The notes under the pieces: generated by a model
Databases searched by the model: none
What the model was told of the DNA's origin: nothing
The model's input: the letters and a program-made list of their open reading frames with translations, nothing else
Source: Moniliella sp. 'wahieum'
Taxonomy: Eukaryota
Reading direction: 5' to 3'
Assembly (NCBI GenBank): GCA_003971905.1
Contig: RSEE01000003.1
Span: 1,178,001-1,242,000 of the forward strand
Length of the DNA stretch: 64,000 bases
Translations under genes and position numbers: made by a program
In this document: positions 367 through 63,755 of the stretch, one piece after another
Layout: each line of letters begins with the position of its first letter
Position numbering within the stretch: the stretch's first letter is position 1

Positions 367-394
367 GGTTACCGGTTATGCATGATGCATGATG
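367..394. repeat. 7-bp-periodic TNA/palindrome array (TTA-CCGG-TTA-TGCA-TGA-TGCA-TGA)
   Basis: Read directly; lies upstream of the mutarotase ATG. Confidence 0.8.
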
Positions 395-730
395 GCATAG
401 ATCGTGAGACCTGAGGAACAGAATTCATGGCGGCCCCAACGCCGCTAGCGCCCGCCGCGCAGACCGAGCACCGAGCGCGCGCGCTGAGTTAGTTGTCTTG
501 GGGCCACTGTGGTAGCTCTGTAAATTATCTAATCGTCCCCGCCTTGCGGCAAGCATTGTGGAAATGAAAGTATGAACTTGGTGATTCGATTATTATCGCC
601 GCACAATGCGGCGGTCTCTCCTGTAGATATAGCTATCGTGGCCAGGCACTCTCCCCACCCAAAACAGCAATGCGCCCCCAGGCTTTTAGCAAGCTATCTC
701 TTTTGCGCTCGCCCACCACCCGCGACCATC

Positions 731-1728
731 ATGCCTATTCAACGCACAGCTACCGCTATCGAAGCCTCCAAGGGAGAGCAAAGCCTTCGGATCGAGTTAC
801 GGGGCGCACGAATTGTTTCCTTTGTCAGCCAAGGGCGGGAGGTCCTGTTCATGCCAACGGCGTACTCTTCGGAGTTTGGTGGGATCCCACTCTGTTGCCC
901 TGTCTTTGGAAATCCTCGTGCTTGGCCATCCTGGAGACAAGAAGAAGCCCAAAAGGCAGGCGTGGACCTGGCTACTATGCCGCTCCATGGTTTTGTGCGG
1001 GACATGGATTTTTCCCCACGAGAGCTTAACGAGACTGACGAGCGCGTCACAGTTTCGCTTGGTTTGGAGATGCCTGCCCAGTCAGGGTTTTTTCCGCTGA
1101 GCTTGCAGTATGATGTGTATGTGAATTTCTCTTTGAATCCAACGTCCGACAGGGCCGAAAGAAGTACAGGAATAGTCCTAACCCTCCTCCGTGTCGCAGA
1201 ACAATCGACTGCGGACCTAGTTTGAAGATGAGCCTTTCGGTGTACAATCCCACACACAACGAAATTGGCTTCAATGCTCTTTTCCACACTTACCTTCTTT
1301 CTCCTCCCGGTGAGCGCACAGTCAAGGGATTGCAGGGCAAGTTCTTCGACGCAACCAATTCTTGGCAGGAGGGCTTCAACTCCGAAGAGGCTCTACCAAT
1401 TGATATGGAGAAGGGATCCGATGCTGTCTTCCCTTCCGCGTCTACCGCAGGAAAGAAGACGGTGACATTGCATGATTCACGTGGGGTTGTGCAGGTCTGC
1501 ACCGAGGGAGGGGGGGATGTTACACTGTGGGTTCCGGGTAAAGAATTGCAGCCTGAGTTGGGCATCGGCGCGGCCGATGGGTTTGTCTGTATTGAGCCGG
1601 GCAAATTTGGGTTTGCTCCTGTGCATCCAGGGGAAACGGTAAGTTTGAAGCCGAAGCAAAGAAGAAGTGTGCTAACCGCTACTCACTCTCGACAGTGGAA
1701 AGTGACCCAAACACTCACACCCAATTAA
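731..1728 (+). CDS. D-hexose-6-phosphate mutarotase / aldose 1-epimerase family (yeast YMR099C / YeaD-like); introns 1117-1199 and 1639-1695
   Basis: Family motifs GARIVSF, GGIPLCCPVFG, HGFVR, FHTY and FVCIEPG. Splicing GTATGT..CTAAC..CAG (1117-1199) joins ORFs 572..1225 and 1222..1728 in frame. Second intron is GTAAGT..CTAAC..CAG. Confidence 0.9.
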
Positions 1729-2799
1729 CGGGGGCGATACGGTATAATTTCATGGAATTACTAAGAAGAAGAAGAAGAGTCGATCATGGGGTACGGGGGT
1801 GAGAAGGGAGAGGGAGACATAGGAGGGAAACACTCGTATGCCACCTAGCGCCAGTAGGGGTGATAATTTGGAATGGGTTCCAGGCAGGTTCGCTCCTGTG
1901 CTCTCCCCCCCACGCGAGATTCGCTGGCCTGAGGCTCCGTAGAAACAGTTATGAGAAGGCGAGCCTGGATGGTACCCGAAGGGGTGAAGCAGTTATCTTA
2001 CAAATATAATGCCAAAACCTTCGTGTCTTGGGTGTGTGGTGCACCGAAGCTTATAGGGACTCGTCCCTGGGCCCATCTCCAACGTAACGAAGGGCAAACA
2101 CTCTTCAAGATTGATTCCAGGGTGGCTCAGCCCCGCTCTAGCTTCAGACCATCTCCGCCCCTACCACCGGCTTTTCCGAATCACCGAGTTTGGCTACCTT
2201 GCTGAACGTGCCATTATTAACTTAATCCTCTCCTCCGTCTCCCCCAGCTGCAGCAGGCCATCAGAGGAGAACTACTACCGTAGCACCTCGTATCACGTCC
2301 ACACGCGAACCAACCACATATTCCACAGCCTCTGAGATCTGAAGTTCAGAGCTCAACCTGTGATGGCTTATGTGATTACCTCGATTTCTCAACAGGCAGA
2401 GATCGTGAAGCGCAAAGGCGCGCATCGCTCATAGGATGCGGCTGTTGCCTGGCATTAAAAGCAGTCATGCCGCCTTGAGTTGGGAGAGTCTGGGTGAGGA
2501 ACGCGCCTCATCGATCATGATCCTTGTATGAACAGCGCAGTATACCACCTGACATGGCATCATCGCGCCGCCTCTACTGCCTCTCTCTCTGTCGTCATTT
2601 CCTGCCTTGATGCTACTATACTAGTCACTGTACCATCCACTTGCCATCCATCAAGTACCCCGGTCTCATTAATAAAACGTTGATTCGCCAGCCTGTGAAG
2701 ACAAGCTACAATGGTACATTGCTTGGTTGCAGTGAATGCTCACTGCTATCCTCCCGGCCTTTGCGGCAGCAGGAGGGTGGTAACAAGAGGAGAGCCAAG

Positions 2800-60995: not shown

Positions 60996-61163
60996 CTCCC
61001 ACTGGTCGCCATTGCGTCACCTGACCGGCCGGATTAACCCTACCCCTGAGCCTCAGGAGCGCTACTCGAGCTTTGTGCCCATAGCTGCTCCCGGTACTCG
61101 CCAATACTAACAAGCCCCATTCAACATGCATTAACCTGCGCCCACCTTGTGGCCGCCAACCAT

Positions 61164-63573
61164 CTACACCGTCTCCGCCCGCATCTTCTCCACAACGTCG
61201 TCCAGGGTGCGCAAACCTGATTTTCCGAAGCCCTTCCACTCGTGCTTGGCAATGTGACGAACATCCGACAAGGTTGCCGACATGATTGCCGGCTCGTTCG
61301 GATGCCACGACACATCCCGCACCACCATCGACGGAAGAAATTTGCGCCTCCTCTGGTTCCTGTTCTTGGTCCTGGACCCGATCGGCGGAATTACCTCCGG
61401 ATACGGGGGGTCCAGCACGCGCTCATACACTGTTCCGTTCCTGAGATTAACAATGGACGCTGCCTGGGTACGGTCAATGGCCTGCAGCAAGCGCCCATCC
61501 AAAGACCAAATCTGTTCCAAGCGTAGTCGTGTCAGCAGCCGTCATCCAGACCATCAACATCAATGAGAGGAAACGTACATAGATCTTTCCGTCAGCCGAC
61601 CCCGAGTAGATGTACTGTTGGCCTGTCGTCGCCGCGGGCGAAAAGTTGCAGCGAATCAACGTCTCGGCAACTGTATGCCCAGTGTAAGATATCACCGACG
61701 CGTCCTCTCCGCTTCCACCGTGCGATCCGGCTGTTCCCGTGGATGAAGCGTCGCTGCGTAGCATCCGCAGATCCCACAGCTTCACGTGGTGGTCTTTGCC
61801 ATTCGACAAAGCATATCGTCCATCGCCCTTGGGCGCCACATGCGTAATCCCGCTTGTGTGTCCTCGCAACTCGCCCATTGCCTTGTTGTCTTGGATCGAG
61901 CGTCGGTCCCACACCTTGACCACAGCATCGTCGCTCCCGCTCACCACAACCTGCGAGCTGGCCGCGTCGGCGAACGCAACGCTGTTAACGTCTGCGCGAT
62001 GCCCCAGGACAGAGAAAGACTTGGTTTGCGCCTCAATGTCGTACATATGGATCGATCCCCCCCGCGCACCGGCAATAATGTCTCGTCCATCTCCTGAGAA
62101 TCGCACGCTGAATAGTGCCCCATCCATCCTCCTGCTGTAACCCCTTTGAGGACCCATGTCGAGCAGTACCTCTTCTCCCGCGCCATCGTCCTGCTTCATA
62201 GGGTTATGGACTGGCTCCTCGTCATCGGGGGAGTACAATGCCCACTTGTTCGGTGTGTACTCAGGCGGATCTTCCTCGTCCAGGGGCGAAAACGCATCGG
62301 TGGGAGGAGCCTCGGGGTGAACATAAGGTGCGATAGGTACCAAATGCACATACTGAGTGAGGGAGCTGTAAATCATCCAGTCGTTCTGCGACGACAGAGC
62401 AGCATCGGTCAAAGTCCAAGCGACACGTTGCGTTGGCAAAAATGTCTTGCGCAAATCCATCGTTGTCAGCTGGGCCCCGCGTTCGTAGTGTTCGCCCGCC
62501 ATCCACTCTGCAACCCCCACCTTGCCGTTCGGACCCCATGCTTGGACGCCGGGGGTAAATCCAGGCTGGGTCGCGTACAGGTGAACGCCAAAGGTCTTGG
62601 TGCACGTCACTAAGAACGAACCATCGGCAGAGTATTGCGACACATACGGCATGTCGTTGTATAACGCCACGTCTCCCCCCCCGAATTGGGGATATAGGTG
62701 GACAGATCAGGACGTCCCCATTCGTACCCCAACCCTGTGGCATGAGAACGAGCGTCGTACACCAGATTGGCCGGGTTGCTCGCCTCCCTAAACATAGAAC
62801 TAGATGTGGTTGCCATCCTCCACCGCGACTTCAGCGTGGCCAAAGAATACTTCCCGGTTGCTTCCTCCCGTAGTTGTGCCTCCGTGGGTCCTGGCGGCGG
62901 GGTTCATCCGTGAAGCGGGTCTCGAACGGAGAAGGCGTGCCGGTTTCTTTTAGAAAGGCATCCATAGCCAGGCCGCCTGAACCGGTCAGGCCCACTAACG
63001 AGTACAGGCTTGGAAAGGCAAGTACAAGAGCAGGATTCATCGGCACGTCTCCCAGCATGGCTGGGTAAATTTTGTTGGTCCAGTGGGGACGATGGGGAGG
63101 CTTGCAATCCAAAGGACTTTGTCAGTGCCAGAAAGATGTCAACGGGTGGAAAGAGTGCTTACCTTACCAAAGTCGCCGCTGAAACGGAGCTTCAGTCCCG
63201 CCCTCAGGGGCTGGGTGACCCGTGGTATCGAGGGTGGCACAACAGGTCCCATGTAGCCCCATGGGTCGTCTTCGTCAAGGTCATCGTCGTCATCGTCGTC
63301 GTCATCATAGTCATCATCGTCATCACCGATGTCATCCACCTGGTTAACGGAACGGCTTGATGCGTTGTTCCCATGGGATCCAGGATCGTCCTCAAACTGC
63401 TCATCATCGAAAGTCCGAGGGAAGAAGGGGATGTTTGCGACGTGGGGCGGCCGAAACACATCGGGGATGATGGGGCCGTCATGCGACATTGGGGACAGCA
63501 TGCCGCCCTTGGCTTCCATTAATGCGATCATCCGACGCCGGCGCGCCTCTTCGGACTGGGCGTAGAACTGCAT
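61164..63573 (-). CDS. DCAF11: DCAF11/WDR23 (LEC14B)-like WD40 CRL4 substrate receptor; intron 61512-61578
   Basis: YIPNS.G..., YVSQYSADGSF, WTLTDA.LS..N.WMIYSS, LFSVRFSGDGR.I.AG, GH.ADVNSVAFAD, WDxR motifs VWDRRS and LWDLR, YTGHTV..TLIRC.FSP..TTGQQYIYSGS.DG, VRDVSWHP.EP. Confidence 0.93.
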
Positions 63574-63738
63574 GATGAGGTGGTGGTGGTGGTGGTGGCA
63601 GGAAGCCAACAAGCACGGCCAGGCAATTCCGCCCGCCAATCCCGATGCCCAGAATGAGGTCTCAGAGATAGAGATGGGCTGAGCTCAGCAAATTTAAATT
63701 GTGCACGTCCCAATTTCACCTACTCGTATCGTCTATCG

Positions 63739-63755
63739 TCACCGGTCACCGGTCA
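63739..63755. repeat. TNA/palindrome array TCA-CCGG-TCA-CCGG-TCA
   Basis: Read directly; about 170 bp upstream of the DCAF11 ATG. Confidence 0.8.

Follow-up and report, generated by a model that had tools for sequence, protein, structure and literature searches.

How does a genome come to carry, at dozens of places in its intergenic DNA, one and the same geometry spelled with ever different letters? The question is raised by a stretch of 64,000 nucleotides from Moniliella sp. 'wahieum' (GenBank assembly GCA_003971905.1, contig RSEE01000003.1, positions 1,178,001 to 1,242,000), hereafter the window, whose non-coding DNA repeatedly carries a 10-mer made of a triplet T-N-A, a 4-bp palindrome and a second T-N-A with the same middle base N, in single copies and in arrays in 7-bp phase. 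A sequence-only reading of the window had cited eleven such arrays, and every one of them was recovered at the position given or a few bases from it. Our counts confirm that the motif is highly non-random. We suggest that it might be a scar rather than a binding site, left by a precise insertion of 7 bp anchored at TNA (a 3-bp duplication plus a mirrored filler of 2+2 nt) and later multiplied by slippage, a reading to which we give a probability of about 45%.

The core unit and its arrays

The core 10-mer occurs 44 times in the window, against 1.2 +/- 1.1 expected from 40 third-order Markov (Markov-3) simulations. The window divides into 34.8 kb of predicted non-coding and 29.2 kb of predicted coding DNA, according to a gene map built from Pfam anchors and a self-trained codon score, and 42 of the 44 copies lie in the non-coding part, where the expectation is 1.1-1.2 and the maximum 5 (100 simulations each, Markov-1 and Markov-3). 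The two 'coding' matches both fall in a predicted segment (27737-28261) that is without Pfam support and lies upstream of the formin gene; the frequencies in coding and non-coding DNA, whose equality would have told against the sequence-only reading, are thus far apart. That reading had also proposed to compare palindromic with non-palindromic fillers, and this comparison bears it out, as the T-N-A frame with a non-palindromic 4-bp filler is found 30 times against 21 expected.

The geometry is specific in other respects as well. Among the 16 triplet classes of the form X-N-Z, T-N-A alone is strongly enriched (C-N-A comes next with 13 against 4.4, and A-N-T gives 2 against 1.2), and among filler lengths from 0 to 10 bp the sole enriched filler is the 4-bp palindrome (44 against 1.4); palindromes of 2, 3, 5 and 6 bp turn up in this place 3, 9, 2 and 2 times where 4.9, 5.2, 1.3 and 0.4 are expected. 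When A-NNNN-T palindromes with the same N are sorted by their outer bases, those with both T and A number 44 against 1.8, those with either one 13 and 11 against about 6, and those with neither 30 against 28, indicating that the motif needs its two outer bases, T as well as A. The middle base is copied, not mirrored: it is the same in 44 matches, the complement in 5 and some other base in 7, the pairs on the plus strand being CC in 27 cases and GG in 9. The filler, on the other hand, is nearly free. The sequence-only reading had spoken of ten different 4-mers, but the count is in fact 15 of the 16 possible palindromes, with TATA absent, which argues against any single recognition sequence. The commonest fillers are TGCA (8), CCGG (6) and TCGA (6), an order that differs from that of the background, where GCGC is commonest. 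A full-text literature search, whose coverage did not extend to subscription journals, returned no description of the motif in fungi or elsewhere.

When N is left free, 56 matches fall into 45 in-phase clusters; the 44 same-N matches form 35 clusters, 25 of them single 10-mers. Ten clusters of the any-N set contain several units, and of these five repeat a uniform palindrome and five combine different palindromes in strict 7-bp phase (the mixed arrays of the table below). N stays constant across the differing palindromes in four of the five mixed arrays, the rare N = A included. Three arrays adjoin, in phase, expanded derivatives with a single substitution: AGCT to CGCT, three copies, at 27916; TCA to TCG at 38005; and CGCG to CCCG, five copies, at 60961. 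These derivatives have lost the palindrome or the T-N-A form and have nevertheless expanded in phase, so that plain period-7 slippage is also at work. Beyond the 10-mer, identity at lag 7 stops at once at 16-17 of 39 ends per side, and a second peak lies at exactly 2 nt (8-9 of 39).

The same periodicity is visible without reference to the motif. Tandem Repeats Finder returned a striking number of period-7 rows, and when perfect repeats of at least 2 copies and at least 14 nt are counted, the window holds 40 period-7 arrays, against 3.3, 3.7 and 5.1 in Markov simulations of order 1, 3 and 5, in comparison with 6 arrays of period 8 and 15 of period 6 (about 1 expected for each). The excess is largely non-coding: there are 35, 9 and 3 arrays of period 7, 6 and 8 in non-coding DNA, and 5 of period 7 and 16 of period 6 in coding DNA. 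The sequence-only reading had predicted peaks at 7 and 14, of which the former is prominent and the latter missing from the spectrum (1 array). Among the 42 period-7 rows, two of which are homopolymer runs, the unit is a 6-bp palindrome plus one base in 16, contains only a 4-bp palindrome in 7 and has neither in 19; by our own calculation a 6-bp palindrome is expected in about 11% of random heptamers. Fourteen of the 16 units with a 6-bp palindrome have the form A-NNNN-T plus N, that is, xyT-N-Ay'x'.

The way in which copies decay is informative about their origin. Ten-mers with one mismatch number 83 against 36.3 expected, an excess of 47, and the excess of perfect copies is 42.5. If perfect copies are born steadily and mutate equally at ten positions, the one-mismatch class should be, by our own estimate, about 1.1 times the perfect class, and the observed ratio is close to that. 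The excess is spread over all positions, with the broken position at N in 12 cases (2.4 expected), in the inner palindrome pair in 16 (5.0), in the outer palindrome pair in 12 (4.9), at the T in position 1 in 13 (5.3), at the A in position 3 in 9 (5.4), at the T in position 8 in 10 (6.6) and at the A in position 10 in 11 (6.6). These excesses scale roughly with the number of positions in each class, and no position is more protected than the others. The motif thus looks as if it were born perfect and then decayed neutrally; decay as even as this is not what a protein-binding site would lead one to expect, and it favors a structure that arises in perfect form and is thereafter left to drift. 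As a rough steady-state estimate, the number of perfect copies (about 43) in the non-coding DNA (about 35 kb) would correspond to roughly one event per 80 substitutions there.

We also considered whether the shape of the DNA could account for T-N-A. In predicted DNA folding, a single 10-mer has no fold, and lattices of four units are predicted at -8.1 kcal/mol with a TGA centre, -9.2 with AGT, -11.7 with CGG and -14.7 with GGC, T-N-A being the least stable. Selection by hairpin stability is rejected on these grounds, and the predictions make the T-N-A requirement look like recognition by a protein.

Position and orientation relative to genes

Most clusters lie 50-600 bp upstream of start codons on the approximate gene map (369, 5559/5690, 11212/11513, 14601/14756, 27573/27905, 32874/32912, 51148, 60903/60956 and 63739), and the densest field, at 37200-38950, is upstream of a cytochrome b5 gene. 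Copies are found as well in spacers read as 3'/3' (2333, 2508, 6802 and 54141). By the same map, intergenic DNA with a gene start in it has about 2-3 times the motif density of convergent 3'/3' spacers. The term 'promoter-side', under which the sequence-only reading had presented the arrays, therefore describes a tendency and no rule. Both tRNA genes of the window have a motif copy upstream, one at a distance of about 250 bp (6802) and the other at 43 bp (48288).

Orientation was assessed in eleven upstream regions for which it was clear what gene lies downstream; eight of these regions hold the motif. Read on the sense strand, the matches are TGA in 25 cases, TCA in 3, TTA in 5 and TAA in none, while the other triplets of the same regions give 165 TGA and 109 TCA (Fisher p = 0.0018). 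Upstream regions are themselves G-rich on the sense strand, with, for example, 686 G against 502 C at 36983-38950 and 137 G against 69 C at 60834-61166. The folding predictions differ slightly between the strands (four units, -8.1 kcal/mol for the G-strand and -6.7 for the C-strand), which might be at most a weak lead towards the strand bias. None of the models that we considered explains this bias well.

Candidate origins of the motif

The reading that we favor can be put as a sequence of steps. A T-N-A in non-coding DNA would gain 7 bp, in that the triplet is duplicated together with its middle base and a nearly arbitrary 4-bp palindrome comes to lie between the copies. This could happen if a break at T-N-A with a 3-nt stagger were filled in, both ends received the same 2-nt extension, and the ends were then joined without overlap. 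The second TNA created by each event could be hit again, which would build arrays that keep N and a strict 7-bp phase while their palindrome changes. Microhomology-mediated tandem duplication and slippage would then add or remove units, mutated and non-palindromic ones included, and all copies would finally erode by neutral point mutation. We infer the break and its repair, an enzyme specific for T-N-A and the re-targeting behind the mixed arrays. A more specific version invokes a putative T-N-A-specific nuclease or domesticated transposase, active for the most part upstream of genes, preferring one strand in connection with transcription, and adding mirrored untemplated dinucleotides for a gain of exactly 7 bp; this version is possible but tentative. 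In its general form, the proposal of the sequence-only reading, according to which exact 7-bp additions with palindromic junctions are made by a recurrent process at TNA, is supported by the copying of N, the restriction to a 4-bp filler, the in-phase switching of palindromes and the even decay, whereas the candidates that it named are not supported, as discussed below.

Several observations weigh against an insertion scar, and some of them concern the flanks. The dinucleotide outside the 10-mer continues the lattice on the left in 18 and on the right in 15 of the 35 clusters, about 47% per side where about 6% is expected by chance, and the two sides behave independently (8 clusters match on both, 10 on the left only, 7 on the right only and 10 on neither), while a simple insertion model predicts no such matches. 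In addition, the 16-mer GATCATCGATCAGCGC, which comprises three units, occurs three times, always on the plus strand (32872-32887, 37449-37464 and 60901-60916). The flanks of its copies do not align, although 22 of 23 bases are identical from 32867 and from 37444, and the third copy is followed by GATCAGCGC three times in tandem at 60908-60935. The recurrence of GATCATCGATCAGCGC and GATCAGCGC looks like the reuse of motifs, be it by function, by a biased choice of filler or by copying between arrays. The distribution is awkward too. The non-coding stretch 39000-43600 (4.6 kb) adjoins the densest field and holds zero same-N copies, which indicates that the process, or the survival of its products, is uneven among non-coding regions. 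Moreover, the upstream clusters centred on G or C read TGA in 20 cases and TCA in 2 on the sense strand (binomial p = 0.0017 against background), though a single region contributes 9 of the 20 TGA clusters, which are perhaps not independent; symmetric cutting and repair would not predict such a bias. As for the machinery, we know of no mechanism by which the two ends of a break could gain the same arbitrary dinucleotide. Among 267 translated open reading frames (ORFs; 10+143+114, searched with Pfam at E <= 1e-5, the first ten at E <= 1e-3) there was neither a transposase family nor a nuclease that could be a candidate for making the motif. Finally, all counts come from this one 64-kb window of a single genome, and the gene map is approximate.

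Slippage alone is an alternative, and in our view an unlikely one. Sites at which T-N-A, palindrome and T-N-A met by chance would be prone to microhomology-mediated duplication or hairpin-assisted slippage, and the arrays would persist and might shrink to a single copy, as a eukaryotic counterpart of the heptamer repeats that are over-represented in bacteria. Period 7 does dominate the non-coding DNA, the expansion of mutated units shows slippage of that period to be active, and the two T-N-A copies would serve as 3-bp microhomology arms, of a kind reported to drive tandem duplication across life, in which a unit between short direct repeats is duplicated and may go on to form an array (bioRxiv 10.64898/2026.02.28.708716). 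Such duplication agrees with the way in which the arrays expand, but it leaves unexplained the roughly 35-fold excess of single-copy palindromic sites and the fact that only T-N-A serves as arms. Furthermore, slippage yields uniform arrays, whereas half of the multi-unit clusters combine two different perfect palindromes in phase; most same-N clusters are single, and the demands for a palindrome and for T-N-A are strict. Hairpin assistance does not help either, as the single 10-mer is predicted to be unfolded and T-N-A lattices to be the least stable, yet the C-N-G and G-N-C centres are unenriched.

The bacterial comparison can be made more precise. Heptamer repeats are over-represented in bacterial intergenic DNA, an excess that is on record as unexplained, with polymerase slippage as a hypothesis (PMC4692102). 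A pattern scan with (GGTCACC)3, a unit that also forms an array in the window, found at least 121 stretches in metagenome contigs and at least 123 in prokaryote genomes, with several matches in several genomes. Such (GGTCACC)n arrays occur in unrelated prokaryotes and soil metagenomes, often among other heptamer arrays, with GTGAC/GTCAC or TGA/TCA in many of these, and in one Chloroflexia genome bin a stretch of 20 kb holds 19 perfect arrays of period 7. The intergenic excess of period 7 is thus shared, but the bacterial arrays are mostly non-palindromic and the genome studied here is eukaryotic. In 1.82 Mb of matched stretches the motif with units other than the seed was found 64 times, about 35 per Mb, while the window has 44 in 64 kb, about 690 per Mb. 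This difference marks the palindromic grammar as a trait of this fungal sequence and not of heptamer repeats in general.

If the copies were instead selected, they might be oriented cis-elements or structural DNA in promoters, read by a protein that contacts T-G-A every 7 bp or bound as dyad sites by a dimeric factor. The sense-strand orientation, the position mostly upstream of start codons, the repeated use of GATCATCGATCAGCGC and GATCAGCGC and the long non-coding stretch without the motif would all be natural under such selection. However, fifteen palindromes do not amount to a defined recognition sequence, a dimer site needs no identical N although even rare N (A or T) are kept within arrays, decay is even at all ten positions with no position-specific constraint, and copies are found in 3'/3' spacers. 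We therefore regard selected promoter elements as rather improbable. An artefact of assembly or base calling we can hardly credit, because the avoidance of coding DNA, the graded decay, the gene-linked strand bias and the expanded mutant units are none of them expected from sequencing error.

Transposon footprints come closest in form to the scar that we propose. PIF/Harbinger elements have an extended palindromic target preference and insert near gene starts, and members of the bacterial IS5 family duplicate TNA. Footprints left on excision by ordinary PIF/Harbinger elements or by other transposons that target TNA, consisting of the 3-bp duplication and two bases from each terminal inverted repeat, would have the observed order of duplication, mirrored 2+2 nt and duplication, with a T-N-A direct repeat and the same N, and PIF, Pong and Tourist elements do make 3-bp duplications with a free middle base (PMC4561436). 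According to the same source, however, mPing, the member studied, excises precisely through the pairing of overhangs derived from the duplication and leaves no footprint, and retention of both copies was never observed where the duplications match (PMC4561436). Fifteen different terminal dinucleotides would also be required, which cannot be the ends of one transposon family, and the 64 kb contain no transposon, inverted-repeat element or, in the Pfam search of the ORF translations, transposase domain. This source, which the sequence-only reading had put forward, fits poorly, and we consider it quite improbable.

Other footprints share the symmetry but not the constraints. At Mariner/Stowaway excision sites, single-stranded ends derived from the element stay on the flanks (PMC4561436). 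The resulting Mariner/Tc1 (Stowaway) footprints consist likewise of a target-site duplication, mirrored end bases forming a small palindrome, and the duplication again. They differ in that the duplication is TA, while here it is T-N-A, mostly TCA or TGA, which contain no TA, and in that the remnant is fixed by the ends of the element and variable in length, while here it is nearly arbitrary and always 4 bp, with no element in the window. Footprints of Ac/Ds are palindromes made from flanking DNA (PMC4561436). Footprints of the hAT, Transib and Mutator type arise through hairpins and resemble the motif in their palindromic junction additions, and about half of the motif ends here continue into the flank; but they vary in length, and the palindrome here has one length and is not made from the duplicated T-N-A. 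These families make duplications of 8, 5 or 9 bp. Hairpin or P-nucleotide repair in general, which the sequence-only reading had listed among its candidates, predicts palindromes derived from the flank and of variable length, and we find flank fits at only about half of the cluster ends, with a single length. Among the systems compared, the best fit is to footprint-like scars that seed microsatellites.

A number of narrower models were tried and rejected. A 7-bp target duplication of a palindromic target, similar to that of P or Galileo, needs a lattice match on both flanks, which only 8 of the 35 clusters have. A 5-bp duplication with two P-nucleotides, as in Transib, would need a lattice match on one flank and should leave tandem duplications of 5 bp too; it is not supported by the count of T-N-A, 2 nt and T-N-A (26 against about 21), and 10 of the 35 clusters match neither flank. 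Template-switch correction of quasi-palindromes predicts a complementary N, which is found in 5 matches against 44 with the same N. The idea that the arrays supply stop codons in three frames (T-N-A being a stop on one strand, and 7 being coprime to 3) meets only four sense-strand clusters with TTA and none with TAA. A telomere-like origin of the TTAGGCC array is not borne out by the telomere-type matches (5 against 2.4 expected), and a dispersed repeat or MITE family (MITE, miniature inverted-repeat transposable element) is at odds with the non-aligning flanks of the 16-mer and with the 64 kb, in which no long dispersed repeats and no dispersed inverted-repeat elements were seen.

Loci, genes and implications

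Table 1. Motif loci and tRNA genes of the window (positions in the window; a strand is assigned to the tRNA genes only)
Feature	Position	Strand	Remark
TTA-CCGG-TTA-TGCA-TGA-TGCA-TGA	369..394		mixed array; about 35 nt upstream of ATG at 427
TGA-GATC-TGA	2333..2342		single
TCA-TCGA-TCA	2508..2517		single
TGA-CATG-TGA	5559..5568		single; between TRM1 and RPS15
CGTGACG x2.3 (TGA-CGCG-TGA-CGCG)	5688..5703		upstream of RPS15
TGA-TGCA-TGA	6802..6811		single; 3' of RPS15, about 250 bp upstream of tRNA-Ala
tRNA-Ala	7054-7125	+	ARAGORN
TCA-TGCA-TCA	11212..11221		single; neither flank matches lattice
TCA-ACGT-TCA	11513..11522		single; neither flank matches lattice
TGA-CATG-TGA-TGCA-TGA	14601..14617		mixed array; upstream of SART-1
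TCA-CTAG x2	14756..14774		array
TCA-GTAC-TCA	27573..27582		single; upstream of formin gene
TCA-AGCT x2, then TCA-CGCT x3	27905..27937		second part in phase, non-palindromic, one substitution
TCA-AGCT-TCA	29533..29542		single
TCGA-TCA-TCGA-TCA-GCGC	32869..32889		holds 16-mer GATCATCGATCAGCGC
GGCC-TTA x3.3	32908..32930		array
GTCAC-GCG/CACG	37248..37298		imperfect period-7/14 array, includes TCA-CGCG-TCA
TCA-TCGA-TCA-GCGC-TCA	37451..37467		mixed array
TCA-ATAT-TCA	37657..37666		single
ATGCATC x3	37681..37701		array
TAA-ACGT-TAA-ATAT-TAA	37987..38003		mixed array; N = A kept
TCG-TCGA x2 and TCA-TCGA x2.9	38005..38034		in phase with each other
GGTCACC x2.9	38080..38099		array
TCA-CATG x2	38132..38145
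TGA-CCGG-TGA	38164..38173		single; minority orientation for region
TAA-AATT-TAA	38411..38420		single; A+T-rich, may be chance match
CTA-CCGG x4.1	38426..38454		array with non-TNA triplet; read as derivative mutated, then expanded
TCA-GCGC-TCA	38524..38533		single
TCA-CTAG-TCA	38551..38560		single; inside degenerate GTCAC-NN run
TAA-GCGC-TAA	38616..38625		single
CATG-TGA-GTAC-TCA-GTAC	43153..43170		complementary N, perfect 10-bp palindrome; minority class
Second tRNA gene	48145-48245	-	Rfam, 101 nt; ARAGORN called only tRNA-Ala
TTA-ATAT-TTA	48288..48297		single; 43 bp upstream of tRNA gene 48145-48245 (-)
CATG-TGA x2.7	51144..51162		array; divergent Sec14/MKT1 promoter
TCA-AGCT-TCA-TGCA-TCA	54141..54157		mixed array; 3' of MKT1, not promoter-side
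CA-TCGA-TCA-TCGA-TCA-GCGC, then GATCAGCGC x3	60897..60935
CGCG-TCA x2, then CCCG-TCA x5	60952..60996		second part in phase, non-palindromic derivative
GTCACCG x2.9 (TCA-CCGG x2)	63738..63757		55 bp upstream of minus-strand ORF

Some of these loci have features of their own. At 37252-37298 the period is 14, with CACGTCACGCGCCC repeated 3.3 times, each unit being made of two different GTCAC-type heptamers, and E-box-like CACGTG or CACATG lies inside several arrays (38132, 38985). Two longer tandem repeats, at 55792-55874 (36 bp, 2.3 copies) and 60009-60082 (38 bp, 1.9 copies), lie in or near predicted minus-strand coding DNA and are unrelated to the heptamer grammar.

The genes around the motif are of many kinds. 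By Pfam, the ORF products include TRM1, ribosomal protein S19/S15 (RPS15), SART-1, a formin (FH2/FH3/GBD), cytochrome b5, a PP1-type phosphatase, a serine carboxypeptidase, Sec14, MKT1, a Zn2Cys6 factor, MINDY and WD40 proteins. The TRM1 ORF matches basidiomycete proteins, with 55% identity to Tilletiaria anomala, followed by Meira, Exobasidium, Malassezia and smuts, the top match reaching 62%. We read these matches as placing the fungus in the Ustilaginomycotina, near the Exobasidiomycetes, its own proteins being absent from the matches; a metagenome search with the TRM1 protein confirmed no relative. The second tRNA gene probably contains an intron, given its 101-nt span. G+C varies from 53 to 67% along the window and is lower (54-56%) at 39000-43600, a stretch with no coding potential by the codon score and no Pfam match on its ORFs, which might be silent chromatin, the remains of an element or a locus for non-coding RNA.

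What the motif means for the organism depends on which reading is right. If it is selected, it represents an unusual oriented promoter grammar. If it is a scar, nature has provided a mutational signature of great clarity, with a single target (T-N-A), a single length (+7) and a single rule of symmetry. The enzyme behind it could then be hunted in the genome, and population data would give its rate and chromatin preference. It would also become possible to follow how a class of microsatellites is born, beginning with the first event, and so to fill a long-standing gap in tandem-repeat biology, which extends to the bacterial heptamer excess. The motif could be categorically new if the enzyme and the step that adds mirrored dinucleotides lack precedent. 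Because the copies lie mostly upstream of genes and vary in copy number, such scars would provide steady promoter variation, and the process, if true, would account in this lineage for a large share of promoter indels and of newly formed heptamer microsatellites.

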